DNA of 44,313 bases from a virus (IMGVR_UViG_2740892271_000004); one strand, 5' to 3'; numbered from the stretch's first letter, positions 11,889-20,008 are shown. The notes: generated from the letters alone by a model not told the origin. Numbers and translations are program-made.

Positions 11889-12116
11889 ATGGATGATTCA
11901 GATTGTGCTCAGGCAGTCATGGAGCGTGCAACAGAACGCGCCCTTTGTGACCGGCTGACACGTAAGCGCCGGGTGGCGGAGACACCGGGCAGGCGTGTAT
12001 GCGCGGACTGCGGGGGTGACATTCCGGCTGCCCGTCTGGTTGCCGTGCCGGATGCCATCCGTTGTGTGAACTGCCAGAACATCATGGAGGCCGGTCATGT
12101 GGGTCAGCATCGTTAA
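11889..12116 (+). CDS. TraR/DksA-family C4 zinc-finger protein
   Basis: 75 aa; CADCGGDIPAARL...RCVNCQ; SD before ATG 11889. Confidence 0.6.
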   Translation: MDDSDCAQAVMERATERALCDRLTRKRRVAETPGRRVCADCGGDIPAARLVAVPDAIRCVNCQNIMEAGHVGQHR

Positions 12117-12408
12117 AGATTATGTCGTGCCGATCCTGTCGGCAACGGCCACAGCCGGGGGGATCTTCATGGCGCTGATGCGCAAAACCTTTGTCCCCCG
12201 CGAGGCCTTTGAAAAACTCTCCGACCGGGTTGAGCGGGTGGAGAGCCGGATTTCCGGCCTGCCCACGCAGCAGGAGGTGAACAGACTCAATATCGAAATC
12301 ACCACCCTGCGCGGTGAGCTTAAGGCCACCAATGCCACCCTGAAATCCGTCTCCCATCAGAACGAACTGCTGCTGGAGCAGGCTGTAAGGAAAAAACACA
12401 ATGAGTGA
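12097..12408 (+). CDS. Mu gp25-like membrane protein (DUF2730; releasin-like)
   Basis: 103 aa; N-terminal TM VVPILSATATAGGIFMALM then coiled coil; GGAGG 6 nt before ATG. Confidence 0.55.
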   Translation: MWVSIVKDYVVPILSATATAGGIFMALMRKTFVPREAFEKLSDRVERVESRISGLPTQQEVNRLNIEITTLRGELKATNATLKSVSHQNELLLEQAVRKKHNE

Positions 12409-12691
12409 TTTCATTACTGAAGATCAGCGTCTTGTCATTCTGCGGTCGCTGGCGGATTACAACGGCGAACTGGGCGAATCCGTGCTTCAGGACTGCCTGG
12501 ATGATTACGGTCACCGCGTGTCCCGCGACACCGTTCATACCCACATTGCCTGGCTTGCCGAGCAGGGACTGGTGCGTAAGCGCACGCTTGTTAACGGTTA
12601 TTTCATCGCTGAACTGACCGGCCGGGGTCAGGATGTGGCGGAAGGCCGCGCCACCGTTCCGGGTGTGAAGAAACCACGCGCAAGGGGGTAA
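12401..12691 (+). CDS. Mu gp26-like small protein
   Basis: 96 aa, position between gp25-like and gp27-like. Confidence 0.5.
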   Translation: MSDFITEDQRLVILRSLADYNGELGESVLQDCLDDYGHRVSRDTVHTHIAWLAEQGLVRKRTLVNGYFIAELTGRGQDVAEGRATVPGVKKPRARG

Positions 12692-12693
12692 CG

Positions 12694-13275
12694 ATGGATA
12701 AGCCAGCGCGTGGCCGTGTACGCAAGGTGGATTTGCTCCCCGACAGCATCCGTAAGCCGCTGCTGGAAATGCTGCGTGAAAAACGTCTGACGCAGGTCCA
12801 GATCCGCGAGGAAATCAACCGTCTGATCCGTGAAGCAGGTCTGCCGGAAGAGCAGCAGCTCTCACCGGCGGCCATCAGCCGGGAAGCCTCCCGTAATGAG
12901 CTGATTGCCCGTAATCTGCGTGATTTACGCGAGCAGACAAAAGCCATGATGGCCGAACTGGGGGATAAGCCGACCGGTGAAACCACGGCACTGATTCTGG
13001 AGATGTCCCGTGCCCTGATGTACCGCCGTCTGCGTGCCGCCACCGAATCCCTGAACAGCGACAGCGATGTGGATATGCGCCTTATTAAGGACATCCTCCT
13101 GTCGGCACAGCGTGCAGAAAGTGCCGCCGAGCGCAGCATTAAGCGTGAAAAAGAAATCCGGGCCGCATTTGCTGAAGAGATGGCGAATGCGGTCACCGAT
13201 GAGTTGCGCGGCGTGGATGGCATGAGCGAGCAGATCGAATTCCGTATCAGGCAGATGCTGCTGGGTAAGGCGTAG
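12694..13275 (+). CDS. Mu gp27-like terminase small subunit (DUF3486)
   Basis: 193 aa, upstream of the large terminase as in Mu. Confidence 0.7.
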   Translation: MDKPARGRVRKVDLLPDSIRKPLLEMLREKRLTQVQIREEINRLIREAGLPEEQQLSPAAISREASRNELIARNLRDLREQTKAMMAELGDKPTGETTALILEMSRALMYRRLRAATESLNSDSDVDMRLIKDILLSAQRAESAAERSIKREKEIRAAFAEEMANAVTDELRGVDGMSEQIEFRIRQMLLGKA

Positions 13276-13285
13276 GAGGTGAATC

Positions 13286-13534
13286 ATGGCAACAGATAAC
13301 CGCTCACTGATGAGCAGTGCCCATCAGAAAGCATTCAGTCTTGCAACACAGTTACCTCCTGAAACCATAAAGGTATGTCGTGAGTTGACTGAACTCAGCA
13401 TTGCCGGGGAAATATCCCTGGAACAACTGCATTCGCTGCTGGCAGAGGCTGCCACTGATGAGTTGAGCGGCGTGGACGTGATGACTGAAGAGCTTGAGTC
13501 CCGAATCAAAAGCATTCTGACAGGTAAAGCATGA
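13286..13534 (+). CDS. Small hypothetical protein with C-terminus paralogous to gp27 C-terminus
   Basis: 82 aa; C-terminal TDELSGVDVMTEELESRIKSILTGKA versus gp27 TDELRGVDGMSEQIEFRIRQMLLGKA. Confidence 0.5.
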   Translation: MATDNRSLMSSAHQKAFSLATQLPPETIKVCRELTELSIAGEISLEQLHSLLAEAATDELSGVDVMTEELESRIKSILTGKA

Positions 13535-15198
13535 TGAACAAAGCCAGAGAAACGTCGCCTTCACTGATGCAAATGACGCCTCCCCGCAAAATTGATCTGT
13601 CAGGTGAAAAAGCCCTGCTGGGCGTGGATGTGCCGGACAGCCTTGATTTGCCCGGTGATATGCCGGTGTTTCTGGATTATCAGGCCCGCTGGTTTGCAGA
13701 TGAAAGTCAGGTCTGCATCGCGGAGAAATCCCGCCGCACCGGTCTTACCTGGGCGGAAGCCGGGCGTAACGTCATTACTGCTGCAAAACCGAAGCGTCGT
13801 GGTGGCCGCAATGTGTTTTATGTGGGATCAAAGCAGGAGATGGCGCTGGAATATATTTCTGCCTGCGCGCTGTTCTCCCGTGCCTTTAACCAGCTGGCAG
13901 ATGCTGATGTGTATGAGCAGACATTCTGGGATCGGGATAAAAAAGAAGAAATTTTGACCTACATGATCCGCTTTCCGAACAGTGGATTCAAAATTCAGGC
14001 ATTGTCTTCCCGTCCGTCAAACCTGCGCGGCCTTCAGGGGGATGTGGTGATTGATGAAGCCGCGTTCCACGAGTCACTGGATGAGCTTCTCAAGGCGGCA
14101 ATGGCGCTCACTATGTGGGGCGCGCGCGTGCGTATTATCTCCACGCATAACGGCGTCGATAATCTGTTTAATCAGTACATTCAGGAAGCCCGCGAGGGGC
14201 GCAAGGATTACAGCGTCCACCGCATAACCCTGGATGATGCCATTGCGGACGGGCTGTACCGTCGTATCTGTTACGTCACCGATCAGGAATGGTCACCGGA
14301 AAGCGAGCAGAAATGGCGTGATGATCTCTACAAAAACGCCCCGACCCGTGAGGATGCCGACGAGGAATACGGCTGTATCCCGAAAAAATCCGGCGGTGCC
14401 TATATCCCCCACGCGCTTATTGAAATGGCGATGATCCGCGACATCCCGATTCTGACGTTTGAAGCCCCGGACAACTTCATCAGCCGTGCCGCATGGCTGC
14501 GTGAATCGGAAGTTTTAACCTGGTGTGAAGAACATTTAAAACCGCTTTTAGAGAAATTAAATCCCCGTTCCCGCTTCAGCTTCGGGGAAGACTTTGCCCG
14601 CACCGGTGACCTGTCCTGCTTTGTGCTGCTGGAAATCACCGAATCCCTGGCAAAGCGCGAGGTGTTTCGCGTGGAGCTGCGCAACCTGCCGTATGCCCAG
14701 CAGGAACAGGTGATGATGTACATCCTGACCCGCGTTCCGGCGCTGGTCGGTGCGGCGTTCGACGCCACCGGTAACGGCGGCTATCTGGCAGAGGCCGCAC
14801 TGCTGGCCTTTGGCCCGGACATCATCGACTGCGTGATGTTGTCGCCGAAGTGGTACGGCGAGTGGATGCCAAAACTGAAAGCCGAGTTTGAAGATCAGAA
14901 TATCCTCGTCGCCCGCCATCAGACCACGCTTGATGATTTGCGCCATGTGAAGGTAGTGAATGGTATCCCGCAAATCGACAAGGGGCGCACGAAGGACCAG
15001 AACGCAACGGCTGCGAACGCCCGCCGCCATGGTGATTTTGCCGTGGCGCTCTGTATGGCAAACCGGGCGTCATACATGGAGGGCTTCATCCTGGATGAAT
15101 CAGCCTGTCAGGCGCTACAGGAGCGGTCGCGGGCAATGGAGGGCGGTTATCGTGATGACGATGAGGCATATCATGAATTTGATCGGGGGGGCTGGTAG
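13531..15198 (+). CDS. Terminase large subunit (Mu gp28-like)
   Basis: 555 aa; Walker-B-like DVVIDEAAF; position before portal. Confidence 0.9.
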   Translation: MMNKARETSPSLMQMTPPRKIDLSGEKALLGVDVPDSLDLPGDMPVFLDYQARWFADESQVCIAEKSRRTGLTWAEAGRNVITAAKPKRRGGRNVFYVGSKQEMALEYISACALFSRAFNQLADADVYEQTFWDRDKKEEILTYMIRFPNSGFKIQALSSRPSNLRGLQGDVVIDEAAFHESLDELLKAAMALTMWGARVRIISTHNGVDNLFNQYIQEAREGRKDYSVHRITLDDAIADGLYRRICYVTDQEWSPESEQKWRDDLYKNAPTREDADEEYGCIPKKSGGAYIPHALIEMAMIRDIPILTFEAPDNFISRAAWLRESEVLTWCEEHLKPLLEKLNPRSRFSFGEDFARTGDLSCFVLLEITESLAKREVFRVELRNLPYAQQEQVMMYILTRVPALVGAAFDATGNGGYLAEAALLAFGPDIIDCVMLSPKWYGEWMPKLKAEFEDQNILVARHQTTLDDLRHVKVVNGIPQIDKGRTKDQNATAANARRHGDFAVALCMANRASYMEGFILDESACQALQERSRAMEGGYRDDDEAYHEFDRGGW

Positions 15199-16787
15199 TG
15201 GGACGCATCATTGATACTGACGGAAAACCTTTCTCCTTTGACCCGGAGATGCAGAGTGCCGCGCTGGATATTCCGCAGATTGCCAGCCGTTATATTGAAC
15301 ATCCGGCTTCGGGTATCACCCCGAACCGGGCGGCGCAGTGCCTTCGCGGGGCTGAACGTGGCGATCTGATTGCCCAGTCCGATCTGGCCGCTGATATTGA
15401 AGAAAAGGACACCCACCTTTTTGCGGAGCTGGGCAAGCGACGTCTTGCCATTCAGGGGGTGCCATGGAGTATTGAGCCGCCACCGAACGCCAGCGCGAAT
15501 GAGAAAAAGGACGCGGAAATGCTCGACGAATATCTGCATTCCGCAGACTGGTTTGATGCCATGCTGTTTGACGCCACGGATGCCATCCTGAAGGGCTATT
15601 CCTGCATGGAAATTGAGCACGGGATGCTCGGTAAAATGCACATCATCCGCGCCATCCGCTGGCGTGACAGCGGGCATTTCTGCCTTAACCCGGATGATTT
15701 GAGCGAACTGCGGCTGCGTGACGGCAGCCATGCCGGGGTGGCGTTTCAGCCCTTTGGCTGGATAGTGCATCAGTCGCGTTCACGCACCGGCTACGGTGGT
15801 GCGACGGGGCTTGTCAGAACGCTTATCTGGCCGTTCATTTTCAAAAACTATTCCGTGCGCGATCTGGCGGAATTTCTGGAGGTGTACGGCCTGCCAATGA
15901 AGGTCGGGAAATACCCGTCCGGGGCAACACCGGAGCAGAAAAGTGCCCTGATGCGGGCGGTGATGGATATCGGGCGACGTACAGGCGGGATCATCCCGGC
16001 CGGGATGTCGCTGGAGTTTCAGGCGGCAGCGAACGGTCAGGCCGATCCGTTTGAAACCATGATTTCGTGGGGTGAGCGTTCCATCTCCAAAGCAATACTC
16101 GGCGGCACGCTGACCACAGAAGCCGGAGACAAAGGCGCGCGCTCGCTGGGTGAGGTGCATAACGAGGTGCGCCGGGAAATCAGGGATTCTGATTTACGCC
16201 AGCTGGCTGCAACCCTGAACCGCGATCTGGTGTATCCGCTGTATGCCCTGAACACCGCCCACGCCATTGATATCCGTCGCCTGCCGCGTATCTGTTTCCA
16301 GACCAAAGAACCGGGGGATATCACCAAAATAGCCAGTGCGGTGATGCAACTCAGTGCGGGGATGGATATTCCTGATCCCTGGGTACGGGATCAGACCGGT
16401 ATTCCACAGCCCACGCCCGGTGAAGCCATATTCCGTGTCCGTCAGAGCAGTAATGAACCGGCCATGCCTGACAGGGAAACGCTACCGGAAAAACAGGAAA
16501 AGACAGAACAGACGGCGCTTTCAGCCCGACTGCCGGAAGCGAAAAACACGCCGCGTGATGAACTGGACGACATGGGGGACGCGGTGCCTGCCCGCCGCTT
16601 ACAGGAGGCCATCGATCCGGTGCTGGAGCCGGTCATTGATGTCATCAGAACGCGGGGGCTGGCGGAGGCACTGGCAGACCTGCCTGCCCTTTACCGTGAA
16701 ATGGATGATTCCCGCCTGATGACGCTGCTCAGTGATGCCATGTTTGCTGCGGAAATGAAGGGGATGCTGGATGGCTCAGGGGATTGA
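15198..16787 (+). CDS. Portal protein (Mu gp29-like, DUF935)
   Basis: 529 aa, GTG start overlapping terminase stop. Confidence 0.9.
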   Translation: MGRIIDTDGKPFSFDPEMQSAALDIPQIASRYIEHPASGITPNRAAQCLRGAERGDLIAQSDLAADIEEKDTHLFAELGKRRLAIQGVPWSIEPPPNASANEKKDAEMLDEYLHSADWFDAMLFDATDAILKGYSCMEIEHGMLGKMHIIRAIRWRDSGHFCLNPDDLSELRLRDGSHAGVAFQPFGWIVHQSRSRTGYGGATGLVRTLIWPFIFKNYSVRDLAEFLEVYGLPMKVGKYPSGATPEQKSALMRAVMDIGRRTGGIIPAGMSLEFQAAANGQADPFETMISWGERSISKAILGGTLTTEAGDKGARSLGEVHNEVRREIRDSDLRQLAATLNRDLVYPLYALNTAHAIDIRRLPRICFQTKEPGDITKIASAVMQLSAGMDIPDPWVRDQTGIPQPTPGEAIFRVRQSSNEPAMPDRETLPEKQEKTEQTALSARLPEAKNTPRDELDDMGDAVPARRLQEAIDPVLEPVIDVIRTRGLAEALADLPALYREMDDSRLMTLLSDAMFAAEMKGMLDGSGD

Positions 16788-18102
16788 TTTAGGTTATGCC
16801 GCCACGCTTCCCTCAAAAGAGACGGTGGCATACTTCCGCGCCAAAGGGGCGCATATCAGCTGGAACTGGTTCGAAACAGACGCGGATGTTCATGCCCGCT
16901 CATTCACGGCAGCAAAAACGGCACGGCTGGATGTGGTAACCACATTACAGGCCGAAGTGCAGCGGGCCATTGATGAGGGGATTTCACAGAAAGAATTTAT
17001 CCGCACACTGACGCCACGCCTGCAAAAGCTGGGATGGTGGGGAAAGCAGATTGTGGTGGACAGCGACGGTAACGCGGAAGAAGTGCAGCAGGGCAGTCCC
17101 CGTCGTCTGGCGCTGATTTACAACGTGAACACCCGTGTGGCTTACAATGCCGGGCGTTACACGCAGATGATGAACAACACGGACACGCATCCGTTCTGGC
17201 AGTATGTGGCGGTCATGGACAGCCGTACCCGCCCGTCGCATTCCGCCCTTAACGGTCTGGTATTCCGCTATGACGATCCGTTCTGGAAAACACACTACCC
17301 GCCCAATGGCTGGAACTGCCGCTGCCGTGTGCGGCCATTGTCTCAGGCCCGTCTGGATGCAATGGGGTTATCCGTTTCATCCGGTGAGGATCATCTCTCC
17401 ACCCGCAATGTTGAGGCTGGCGTGGATAAACAGACCGGAGAAGTCAGAGAAATGCCGGTGACCACATATTCAGATGGCGCCAGAACCATGACACCGGATG
17501 TGGGCTGGTCATATAACCCCGGCTCGGCAGCGTTCGGCACAGACCAGGCGCTGATCCGCAAACTGATCGAGGTGAAAAGCCCGGCGTTACGGGAAATGGT
17601 GGTTCAGGAGATGAACAACAGCCCGGAGCGGCAGCTGGCGTTCCGCATCTGGGCAAAAAACATCATGCAGACCCGGCGAGGTGGTAACGATATCCGCACG
17701 CTGGGCTTTATGACTGAAAGCATTGCGCAGGCAGTGGAAAGCCGGACGGGAACGCCACCGGCCCGCCTGCTGGCGATGAGCGGTAAAAATGTGCTCCATG
17801 CGGACAGTGTGAAACATCAGAATGACGGCATCGCTCTGACGCCGGAGGACTTCGGGCGCTTACCGGCAATGCTGGCAAGGCCAAAAGCGGTACTGTGGGA
17901 CAAACGGCACAACAATCTGATGTATATCGTGGAAAATCAGGATGGCAGTGTGCAGATTGCCGTTAATGCACCGTACAGTCTGAAACGTCAGCCCGACAAA
18001 CTGGATGTGATTGTGAATGCTTACCGGGTTATCAATATGGATAAGCTGAAATCGGATATCCGGGGCGGAATGCTTGAGGTGCTGGAAGGACAAATTGATT
18101 AA
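16771..18102 (+). CDS. Head morphogenesis protein, Mu F (gp30)-like
   Basis: 443 aa, follows portal. Confidence 0.85.
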   Translation: MAQGIDLGYAATLPSKETVAYFRAKGAHISWNWFETDADVHARSFTAAKTARLDVVTTLQAEVQRAIDEGISQKEFIRTLTPRLQKLGWWGKQIVVDSDGNAEEVQQGSPRRLALIYNVNTRVAYNAGRYTQMMNNTDTHPFWQYVAVMDSRTRPSHSALNGLVFRYDDPFWKTHYPPNGWNCRCRVRPLSQARLDAMGLSVSSGEDHLSTRNVEAGVDKQTGEVREMPVTTYSDGARTMTPDVGWSYNPGSAAFGTDQALIRKLIEVKSPALREMVVQEMNNSPERQLAFRIWAKNIMQTRRGGNDIRTLGFMTESIAQAVESRTGTPPARLLAMSGKNVLHADSVKHQNDGIALTPEDFGRLPAMLARPKAVLWDKRHNNLMYIVENQDGSVQIAVNAPYSLKRQPDKLDVIVNAYRVINMDKLKSDIRGGMLEVLEGQID

Positions 18103-18185
18103 CGGTCAGTGGCGGGGGTCGAACCCGCATACATGATCCACCCGGAGGCAGGCACCGACTTTACCAGTTAAGCGTACACTGACCG
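18103..18185. other. Structured element in F-G intergenic region: 9-bp closing stem enclosing a tRNA T-arm-like hairpin
   Basis: CGGTCAGTG (18103-18111) pairs with CACTGACCG (18177-18185); inner hairpin GCGGG-GGTCGAA-CCCGC; on the minus strand this reads GCGGG-TTCGACC-CCCGC next to the 3' acceptor-like strand; U-rich tract follows on the plus strand. Confidence 0.4.
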
Positions 18186-18223
18186 CCTGTTTATTTTATA
18201 TTCATCCTTTATGCGGAGGCAAT

Positions 18224-18697
18224 ATGTCATCCATTGATGCAGCTGTCGTTGTTGACGTTACGCGTCTCCAGCGAGTGTTTGCCCGGCTTCAGTTTGTGGG
18301 CGGCGGAAAAGACCTGGCCCGCAGTGTGGCGGCGAGTCTTCTGTCATCGTCAGAAATGGCGTTTGAGCAGGAAAAAGAGCCGGATGGTGAACGCTGGCAT
18401 GACTGGTCAGATCCTTACCGTGAGTGGCGTACCCGTAAGGGATACACGCCCGGCAAAATCCTGACGCTGAACGGCGATCTGGCCCGCCGCCTGACCACGG
18501 ATTATGGCGATACCTGGGCGCTGATTGGATCAAATGAACCTTATGCAGCCATTCATCAGTGGGGTGGCCTGCCTGGTATGCCACCGGGACCGGCGGCCAT
18601 TGGCGCACGTCCGTATATGGGCTTTGATCAGGTGGCAGAACAGGAGATCATGGACGAAATCAGAAAACGCTTTAAAAAGGCCACAGAAACGCCGTAA
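18224..18697 (+). CDS. Virion morphogenesis protein, Mu G (gp31)-like
   Basis: 157 aa, SD GGAGG before ATG. Confidence 0.75.
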   Translation: MSSIDAAVVVDVTRLQRVFARLQFVGGGKDLARSVAASLLSSSEMAFEQEKEPDGERWHDWSDPYREWRTRKGYTPGKILTLNGDLARRLTTDYGDTWALIGSNEPYAAIHQWGGLPGMPPGPAAIGARPYMGFDQVAEQEIMDEIRKRFKKATETP

Positions 18698-18874
18698 TGG
18701 TTTAAGGTATGCAAACGTATTACCTTACCCCCTTCAGGCGCGTGTCGTGATTTTCTAACCTGTATTTAACGGGCTTTAAAATCTGCGTGAAGCGCCTTTC
18801 TCATTCCCCCCCTGTCAGCACTTTCTGAAGTCCCGCAAAACCAGCCCCAAAAATACCCGGCTTATGCTGCCGGT

Positions 18875-20008
18875 ATGAAGACAGAAAATCACCCAAAAGA
18901 CGCAAATCGCCCCTCCGGTTTAGCCGTGCTTTCAGCTTCGCTGACTGCATCCGGCGACGGATGGTGTCAGTTACTGCCAGCCGGTCGGGTAAAGGCCCGT
19001 GACGGTCGCCCGGAAAAACCGACTGAAGGCTGGCTGATTAACGAATCCGCCTGTAACCGGATGAAAGCCGGGCTTTCCGCCCTGCATCAGCCGTTACTGA
19101 TTGATTATGACCATCACTCCGTGAATGCGCAGAAAAACGGATTCAAGGCTATTGCTGCAGGATGGGTTAAGCCGGAAAACATCGAATGGCGTGAGGGTCA
19201 GGGGATTTTCATTAAACCTGAATGGACACCACAGGCACAAAAACATATTGATGACCGTGAATATGCCTATCTGTCTGCATATATGCATTATTTCGCTGAC
19301 ACCGGGGAACCCTACCTGTTGCGCATGGCTTCCCTGACGAATGATCCGGGTATTACGGGTATGAACCCTGTCGCGGCACTCAGTGCTGATGATCTCTATG
19401 TCGTTTCCCCTTCTCAGGAGCAATCCCCCATGAATGAGCAATTACGCCAGTTGCTGACGGCGCTCGGTCTGACCGTGGCTGACGGTGACGAATTTACACC
19501 GGAACTGGGCACGGCGGCGCTGTCTGCCCTTACCGGGATCAAAACCCGTGCGGATGCGCACGACACCCTGAAAACGCAGGTTGCCAGCCTGTCGGCAGAA
19601 CTGGAAACCGCAAAAGGCACACCAACTGGCGGCACTATTGATCTGACGAAATATGTGCCCGTTGAGACGTATAACGCCCTGCGTACCGAATATGCCGCGC
19701 TGTCGGCACAACACGGCAGCACCACGCTGGAGCAGTTGCTGGATAAGGCCGAGTCCGAAGGACGCATTTTCAAAAGCGAACGCGGATACATGGAAGGACT
19801 CGGACAACAGATTGGCGTCGCGGCACTTTCTGCACAGCTTGACGCCCGCCAGCCGGTTGCGGCTCTGACCACTCTTCAGACCGACACCGTAACCGTGCCG
19901 GATAAAAAGACCGCCACCGCTGTGCTGTCGGCTGAAGATATCGCCGCCGCACGTCTGTTGGGTAAAACCGAAGCCGAGTTCCTGAAAATGAAAGAGGAAA
20001 TGCAATAA
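18875..20008 (+). CDS. Head protease/scaffold protein, Mu I (gp32)-like
   Basis: 377 aa; N-terminal protease-like region and C-terminal Ala/Leu-rich scaffold-like region; precedes major capsid gene. Confidence 0.85.
   Translation: MKTENHPKDANRPSGLAVLSASLTASGDGWCQLLPAGRVKARDGRPEKPTEGWLINESACNRMKAGLSALHQPLLIDYDHHSVNAQKNGFKAIAAGWVKPENIEWREGQGIFIKPEWTPQAQKHIDDREYAYLSAYMHYFADTGEPYLLRMASLTNDPGITGMNPVAALSADDLYVVSPSQEQSPMNEQLRQLLTALGLTVADGDEFTPELGTAALSALTGIKTRADAHDTLKTQVASLSAELETAKGTPTGGTIDLTKYVPVETYNALRTEYAALSAQHGSTTLEQLLDKAESEGRIFKSERGYMEGLGQQIGVAALSAQLDARQPVAALTTLQTDTVTVPDKKTATAVLSAEDIAAARLLGKTEAEFLKMKEEMQ

Follow-up and report, generated by a model that had tools for sequence, protein, structure and literature searches.

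What is an additional small gene doing between the two terminase genes of a Mu-like prophage, and why does its product end in a copy of the C-terminus of the terminase small subunit encoded immediately upstream? The question is raised by IMGVR_UViG_2740892271_000004, a 44,313-nucleotide stretch of viral DNA (the window, below) that represents a complete-looking Mu-like prophage of Escherichia coli, 99.9% identical, over the segment tested, to a prophage of strain 102651. Between a gp27-like gene for the putative terminase small subunit (TerS) and the gene for the terminase large subunit (TerL, gp28 in phage Mu), the window carries a plus-strand open reading frame (ORF) of 82 codons plus a stop at 13286..13534, here denoted ORF82. 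A preliminary description of the window, made from the sequence alone, had proposed either a recombination scar left by module exchange or a protein acting on terminase assembly as a competitor or modulator. We favor, at a probability of roughly 60%, the view that ORF82 is an in-frame recombination chimera, that its gp27-like tail is probably vestigial, and that the ORF is retained mainly as a translational bridge to TerL.

ORF82 is present as described. It starts with the ATG at 13286, 4 nt downstream of a perfect Shine-Dalgarno (SD) sequence, AGGAGGTG (13274..13281, plus strand, supported by the sequence and by duplex energy), which overlaps the gp27 stop codon TAG (13273-13275), and it terminates with a TGA (13532-13534) that shares bases with the TerL ATG at 13534 (TGATG, 13532..13536); the RefSeq annotation of a near-identical prophage agrees. 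The upstream gene (12694..13275, plus strand, 193 aa) gave a full-length match to Pfam PF11985 Phage_Mu_Gp27 (E 3.1e-33) and a profile match to PHROG 426, terminase small subunit. The C-terminus of ORF82 is paralogous to the C-terminus of this protein, and BLASTP, hhalign and DNA alignment agree on this point: BLASTP aligned the two C-termini end to end without gaps (18 identities in 31 residues, E 3e-10), hhalign paired ORF82 residues 51-82 (13436..13531, plus strand) with gp27 residues 162-193 (13177..13272, plus strand) at a probability of 96.7% (E 4.5e-10), and the DNA of the two copies is alignable over at least 69 nt (~70 nt). Proper alignment thus confirms a genuine homology rather than a low-complexity coincidence, although the shared tail comprises the last 31-32 residues and not the last 26, as initially noted. 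Upstream of residue 51, none of the three methods detected any likeness to gp27, and PF11985 did not match ORF82 at E<=1; ORF82 is therefore not a full-length member of the gp27 family. With Mu gp27 and PF11985 it shares the C-terminal region, both proteins ending in GKA, as well as a stop codon that overlaps the TerL start, but it has no counterpart of the ~160 residues that make up the N-terminal and central parts of gp27. Two candidate extensions of the similarity, namely that the ORF82 N-terminus is a miniature of the gp27 N-terminal helix-turn-helix (LPPETIKVCRELTEL vs LLPDSIRKPLLEML) and that residues 35-50 derive from gp27 residues ~145-162 (ELSIAGE vs ERSIKRE), were rejected because hhalign aligned only residues 51-82.

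The first 50 residues of ORF82 (13286..13435, plus strand) belong to a separate family of small proteins. ORF82 is a member of PHROG 30922, to which no function is assigned (E 6.9e-52 over residues 2-82). The ORF82 family itself is tiny, consisting of E. coli sequences with at least 79% identity, and a HMMER scan of 1.84 billion representatives retrieved only this family and a 67-aa protein, P0132, that matches ORF82 residues 1-56 and has no gp27-like tail. P0132 is encoded in the same TerS/TerL slot of another E. coli Mu-like prophage (locus L007), where the upstream gp27 bears the same C-terminal sequence, IEFRIRQMLLGKA, and is followed by the same SD, and where the small gene is separated by a 120-nt spacer from a TerL with a different N-terminus. 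Profile search added about 16 clusters of 65-aa Salmonella proteins (ORF65) encoded in the context gp27 - 7 nt - ORF65 - ATGA - TerL. The ORF65 of Citrobacter braakii, also on the plus strand, starts 7 nt past the gp27 stop and has its own stop overlapping the TerL ATG; hhalign aligned it with ORF82 residues 4-49 in 46 ungapped columns (E 2.6e-5, 33% identity). Members of this 65-/67-aa family (PHROG 30922; P0132-P0148) thus occupy the same slot on the same strand, start 7-10 nt past the gp27 stop and are homologous to the N-terminal ~50 residues of ORF82, but they end ~10 residues past the third predicted helix, where ORF82 has 27-32 gp27-derived residues instead. A gp27-like tail was found in none of the other small-family members from Salmonella, Citrobacter and E. 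coli. The extra gene recognized in the preliminary description is thus a chimera, and it is not a peculiarity of this phage: Mu-like prophages of Salmonella commonly carry an ortholog that lacks the tail.

AlphaFold2 models of ORF82, generated from alignments of 5 and 21 sequences, predict a three-helix N-terminal module (residues 3-21, 25-39 and 45-60), followed by a linker modelled with low confidence (60-67) and a last helix at the C-terminal end (68-79), with a moderate mean pLDDT (predicted local distance difference test) of ~69-70. Foldseek comparison of these models with BFVD and PDB yielded nothing better than E ~0.9, and sequence search found no solved structure of a gp27 relative.

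How the two parts came together is indicated by comparison with relatives that lack the small gene. Among 5426 complete E. coli genomes, 230-231 contain this prophage family; ORF82 is present in 25 of these, and about 205 of 230 lack exactly 259 bp at this position, the gp27 stop overlapping the TerL ATG directly. In comparison with the ORF-less CI5 prophage, identity is 97-99% to the left and right of this position, with the divergence confined to ~13215-~13600 (sliding identity, loci L003/L004). This mosaic patch, delineated by sliding identity, three-way comparison and alignment, begins ~15 codons before the end of gp27, takes in ORF82 and extends ~22 codons into TerL. Within it, the last 13 residues of gp27, the IEFRIRQMLLGKA sequence mentioned above, are atypical and were found together with the small ORF at every locus examined. 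At the DNA level, the window and L007 are ~88% identical up to codon 34 of the small ORF and less similar, yet alignable, up to codon ~55, past which the window becomes gp27-like; the switch occurs at a GCnnAnGC microhomology near 13439-13450 that, according to the alignment, is common to the three parental contexts. The base composition changes as well: the GC content at third codon positions (GC3) is 0.49 in ORF82 and 0.46 in its N-terminal module, compared with 0.66 in gp27 and 0.62-0.74 in the neighbouring genes.

The wider alignment of Mu-like genomes at the gp27-gp28 junction showed that Mu and most of its relatives have no ORF82 and that the two genes abut directly. In phage Mu and in one Vibrio Mu-like phage, gp27 is followed immediately by gp28/TerL. 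Among 17 Mu-like loci from GTDB species representatives, which extend from Citrobacter to Aeromonas and Agitococcus (Gammaproteobacteria), the gp27 stop lies -4 to +5 nt from the TerL start in 13; the remaining four include one with a small intervening ORF and three in which TerL is disrupted or was not detected. Because direct abutment is the norm in the family, direct coupling of gp27 to TerL appears to be the ancestral arrangement, and it is the geometry of this junction that the ORF82 tail, together with the TGATG, reproduces. Thus, the proposal of a recombination scar is supported both by the sharply bounded patch between nearly identical flanks and by the composition of ORF82, in which a module from a tail-less family is joined to what looks like the ancestral gp27/TerL junction.

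Two simpler routes to the same arrangement can be weighed against these data. A tandem partial duplication, in which the last ~83 codons of gp27 would have been copied in place and the N-terminal part of the copy would then have diverged, fits the length of the extra 259-bp segment reasonably well and would account for the two tails being direct repeats. Such an origin is nevertheless barely credible: neither BLASTP nor DNA alignment nor hhalign extended the similarity N-terminally of residue 51, the GC3 of the N-terminal part departs from that of gp27, and the existence of tail-less homologs of this part in Salmonella, Citrobacter and E. coli effectively refutes duplication in place. The three-way pattern had also initially suggested the reverse polarity, with an ancestor resembling the window having recently lost the segment between its two tail repeats to give the ORF-less E. 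coli form. This was ruled out, given that the tail and TerL start of the ORF-less form are only 76-78% identical to those associated with ORF82, compared with 97-99% in the flanks, and that the ORF-less tail is simply the family consensus.

We therefore envisage a recombination between two donors. A lineage with a small accessory gene in the slot would have given the first ~50-55 codons, and would also be the source of the strong ribosome-binding site and of the atypical last 13 codons of gp27, whereas a phage with gp27 coupled directly to TerL would have given the last ~27-32 codons, that is, the gp27 3' end. An illegitimate joint at the GCnnAnGC microhomology may have fused the two parts; as the joint is in frame, the old gp27 tail and its TGATG would have stayed attached to TerL, with a complete gp27 retained upstream. 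At the N-terminus, two classes of ORF82 allele can be told apart, MATDNRSLMSSAHQK and ME(K/T)NIRALII(R/S)ARRE (L013/L014 3001-3045 vs window 13286-13330), which differ at 8 of the first 15 residues, the ALII motif being present also in the 67-aa variant; the existence of these classes suggests further small-scale recombination within ORF82.

Why the chimera would be kept is suggested by the translation signals. The predicted energy of duplex formation with the anti-SD sequence is -11.5 kcal/mol for ORF82, close to that for gp27 (-11.8), and the strong SD is shared by alleles L013 and L016 and by the gene for the 67-aa protein in L007, being weaker in L014. For TerL, the values are -3.8 in the window, -3.7 in the ORF-less E. 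coli form, -4.0 in the Salmonella form and -2.2 in a form with a remnant of the small gene in CI5 (see below), compared with -6.4 in L007, where TerL follows the 120-nt spacer, and -6.3 in Mu, where it follows a 7-nt gap. The SD of TerL is thus weak wherever the gene is coupled to an upstream ORF and stronger where it is uncoupled. The combination of a weak SD with a conserved stop/start overlap suggests that initiation at TerL normally depends on ribosomes that terminate upstream. If so, TerL would now be translationally coupled to ORF82 in place of gp27, and a nonsense mutation or frameshift in ORF82 would starve the phage of TerL; because of this coupling, the frame would be kept open while the amino acid sequence, including the duplicated tail, drifts nearly neutrally. 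As for the N-terminal module, it probably represents an accessory late-operon protein that is not essential.

The pattern of substitution in five ORF82 alleles (window, L013, L014, L016 and L017) agrees with such drift. Pairwise ratios of nonsynonymous to synonymous variation (pN/pS) are 0.5-0.9 for the whole of ORF82, 0.5-1.6 for its N-terminal part and 0.0-0.7 for its tail, compared with 0.03-0.08 for gp26 and the bodies of gp27 and TerL, and 0.00-0.06 for the genuine gp27 tail, which is under strong purifying selection. The variable codons are nonsynonymous to synonymous 24:6 in ORF82, 16:79 in TerL and 7:48 in gp27 (Fisher p ~1e-9), and relative to the gp27 family ORF82 evolves about 10 times faster at nonsynonymous sites. 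The Salmonella/Citrobacter ORF65 gave intermediate ratios of 0.26-0.36, against 0.03-0.10 for gp27 and TerL of the same loci. From this comparison, the small-gene family appears to be real and moderately constrained, with the chimera being more relaxed.

Evolution this close to neutrality, together with the low GC3, might indicate that ORF82 is no gene at all and that its frame is open merely by chance, within a recombination joint that does not code for protein, and neutral simulation at the observed divergence indeed left the frame open in 25-50% of the trials. Given this frequency, the integrity of the ORF is weak evidence, in either direction, on selection at the protein level. However, a chance frame would hardly be expected to have a perfect SD at optimal spacing, a start codon kept as ATG or GTG across alleles (GTG in several IMG/VR alleles) and a stop that precisely overlaps the TerL start in every allele; moreover, the orthologous ORF65 of Salmonella is under purifying selection and the N-terminal module is detectably conserved from E. 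coli to Citrobacter. We consider this possibility highly improbable.

Several observations weigh against the proposed recombination chimera with a vestigial tail. A donor phage in which this exact tail and TerL N-terminus occur in the direct gp27/TerL arrangement was not found in IMG/VR or among the complete E. coli genomes, and for this reason the direction of events is one that we infer. Furthermore, ORF82 is intact in all 25 complete genomes and in 8 IMG/VR contigs, in at least five alleles. The maintained start codon and the conservation of 11 of the 14 invariant tail residues could point to a retained binding function, and small phage proteins subject to diversifying selection typically show a high pN/pS as well.

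The last points lead to the second proposal of the preliminary description, that of a protein acting on terminase assembly. In lambda and P22, the C-terminal region of TerS binds the N-terminal part of TerL (PMC9611059). By analogy, ORF82 might use the small-subunit docking peptide to bind the partner of gp27, presumably TerL, and so compete for, titrate or regulate terminase assembly, or else bring the three-helix module to the motor that packages the DNA. Within the gp27 family, conservation is highest over the C-terminal ~50 residues, which implies an important interaction, and within the motif AV[TS][DE]ELRGxDGMSExLExRIxxxLLGKA ORF82 keeps 11 of the 14 invariant positions along with the terminal GKA. 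The predicted linker and terminal helix could leave the tail flexible and exposed from the three-helix core, and the chimera has persisted through at least five alleles in transposition-competent prophages. Nevertheless, several conserved residues of the tail have been replaced. Three positions that are invariant in the family are substituted in the window allele (V167A, G176V and S178T, the first not in all alleles) and so are two near-invariant ones (R172S and L190T). V167, G176 and S178 did not vary in any gp27-family sequence examined, from E. coli to Vibrio and Aeromonas and down to 31% overall identity, whereas the changes at G176, S178, R172 and L190 are common to all ORF82 alleles and G173 and L181 are polymorphic among them. 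To this are added the relaxed pN/pS of the tail, in comparison with the genuine gp27 tail, the absence of the gp27-like tail from every other member of the small family, and the absence of ORF82 itself from Mu and from most close relatives, including 205 of the 230 E. coli genomes. The presumed docking site is itself not conserved, with ~20 hypervariable residues at the N-terminus of TerL. Accordingly, competition with or modulation of terminase assembly is disfavored, and we regard a functional tail mimic as possible but doubtful.

A variant of this scenario, which we consider unlikely, is the capture of a short linear motif, whereby ORF82 would be an accessory protein that docks on the partner of the gp27 tail and tunes or gates terminase assembly. 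Translated just before the coupled TerL, the ORF82 tail could be the first that newly made TerL meets, and the changes R172S, G176V, S178T and L190T would then be adaptive, yielding a binder devoid of the activating function. Should the tail copy still bind TerL, ORF82 would amount to a naturally occurring mimic of the terminase small subunit, dominant-negative or regulatory in its effect. Across Mu-like prophages (L030-L047; window 13534-13600), TerL starts with a stretch of ~10-20 residues that is hypervariable in both length and sequence, up to a conserved P-R-K/L-I-D/N-L motif (PRKIDL), and that shows elevated pN/pS within E. coli.

The chimera is one of at least five architectures at the TerS/TerL junction. 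In Mu, the Vibrio phage, ~205 E. coli genomes and 13 GTDB loci, gp27 is coupled directly to TerL; in Salmonella and C. braakii, ORF65 intervenes; in the E. coli locus L007, gp27 is followed by the 67-aa ORF, the 120-nt spacer and TerL; in the window and the 25 E. coli genomes, by the ORF82 chimera and TerL; and in a second prophage of CI5 (L019), by a 9-codon remnant and TerL. The last of these (L019 1291-1330; CI5, NZ_CP011018.1 ~4294360-4294400) still has the SD and 11 nt from the start of the small ORF, ATGGCAACAGA, joined to the sequence just upstream of an L007-type TerL, which creates a 9-codon leader (MATDWFSYE and a stop) overlapping the TerL ATG. The remnant is a deletion scar of an L007-type cassette and shows that the small gene is dispensable; as CI5 keeps only this remnant in its second prophage, the slot evidently both gains and loses the small gene.

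Dispensable cargo in precisely this slot has a precedent. In the Pseudomonas Casadabanvirus phages JBD26 and JBD24, the TerS/TerL slot holds two dispensable genes: atab is encoded on the plus strand and follows TerS immediately, and tab has a promoter of its own and is read from the minus strand (PMC10884400); anti-Tab (aTab) is a late-operon protein that neutralizes the prophage-encoded assembly-blocking protein Tab (PMC10884400; Nat Commun 2024). The small-gene family could, by analogy, be an enterobacterial counterpart of anti-Tab, that is, defence/anti-defence cargo in which the gp27-like tail of ORF82 is incidental. Slot, strand, position immediately after TerS in the late operon, size (83 aa vs 65-82 aa), dispensability and fast evolution all agree with this idea. 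In addition, the 120-nt spacer of L007 contains a convergent minus-strand ORF of 39 aa, MMLQTQLELLERYLSGTFRQLTFAWKKRSLIALCFSPAG (L007 5181-5323; Logan SRR34397675), whose start lies 23 nt away from the TerL ATG and which runs into the 3' end of the small gene on the plus strand, a layout matching that of atab and tab in JBD24; it has no PHROG match, and a candidate of this kind was seen only in the L007 variant. Sequence similarity to aTab or Tab is, however, lacking (best BLASTP E 0.56-2.6), the PHROGs differ (13614 for aTab and 14530 for Tab, as opposed to 30922), and aTab, unlike ORF82, carries no TerS-like tail. PADLOC-DB models gave no match at E<=1 for ORF82 or P0132, there is no minus-strand partner in the window, and the Salmonella and Citrobacter versions leave no room for a partner gene. 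A search for promoter-like sites at 12900-13900 of the window found none. An antisense gene within ORF82 was also considered and rejected: of two minus-strand ORFs, of 63 and 70 aa, one is interrupted by stops in L013 and the pN/pS of the other is no better than that of the sense frame, again with no promoter. Thus, the notion that the family works like anti-Tab is a lead, but the claim that it is an anti-Tab is contradicted by the tests of sequence, PHROG membership and minus-strand partner, and we deem this alternative distinctly unlikely.

The chimera lies in the late operon, where the gene order is DUF2730 (gp25-like), winged-helix gp26-like, gp27, ORF82, TerL (13534..15198, plus strand, 554 aa, PHROG 2) and DUF935 portal gene. 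The prophages that carry ORF82 occupy different chromosomal sites. The prophage of strain 102651 interrupts a motility gene that adjoins the fli cluster, and the prophage of strain M18 truncates the hsdR gene of a type I restriction system instead. Such differences point to random Mu-like insertion in independent events, which makes the arrangement compatible with an active phage. At the right end of the prophage (window 39300-44313 and 1-560), a gene for a 'motility-associated protein' is truncated beside a cluster of the fliD/fliS/fliK/fliA type.

Some further features of the packaging region deserve mention. In the ORF-less locus of E. coli 2012EL-2448 (L004 1795-2376), the annotation lists gp27 as a pseudogene interrupted by a stop, and a 291-aa protein from one Logan contig, P0013, starts as the gp26 N-terminus (MSDFITEDQRLV) and ends in the gp27 tail; its length is about that of gp26 (96 aa) plus gp27 (193 aa), and it looks like a gp26-gp27 fusion. 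These two cases indicate decay or frameshifts in some copies of the packaging module. A terminator-like hairpin with a T-rich run is present on the minus strand within the 5' end of the small ORF, both in the window (13299-13318, stem of 8 bp) and in L007 (5016-5038, stem of 10 bp with 7 GC pairs), at the RALIISA and RSLMSSA codons; its register differs slightly between the two allele classes, and the hairpin count is not above the shuffled expectation. It could be a terminator of a minus-strand transcript or a structure in the ORF82 mRNA. ARAGORN detected no tRNA in the window, and no Rfam element reached the gathering threshold within 12000-19000. In the strain 102651 prophage, RefSeq annotates a 'tRNA-OTHER' on the minus strand at the equivalent of ~18096-18183 of the window, in the interval separating the minor head (F-like) gene from the virion morphogenesis (G-like) gene; it annotates one at this position in M18 as well.

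Tailed phage genomes are mosaics in which illegitimate recombination at gene boundaries produces novel joints and delivers morons. The locus described here shares with these a sharp-edged divergent patch within near-identical genomes, a lower GC content, polymorphism of presence and absence, and a remnant scar in a sister prophage. It departs from the usual mosaic joint in that the joint is located inside a coding sequence and in frame, so that the fusion ORF duplicates a conserved peptide, and in that this ORF seems to have inherited the translational coupling of an essential gene. Accordingly, the locus would represent ordinary phage mosaicism acting within a coding sequence, with an unusually legible history: an illegitimate joint in frame appears to have duplicated a conserved peptide and to have passed the coupling of TerL to a newcomer ORF. 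More broadly, enterobacterial Mu-like prophages have a cargo slot at the TerS/TerL junction that holds an uncharacterized family of 65-aa genes, and the variants of this junction, namely the tail-bearing chimera, the tail-less orthologs, the clean absence and the 9-codon remnant, amount to natural experiments on the role of the gp27 tail.

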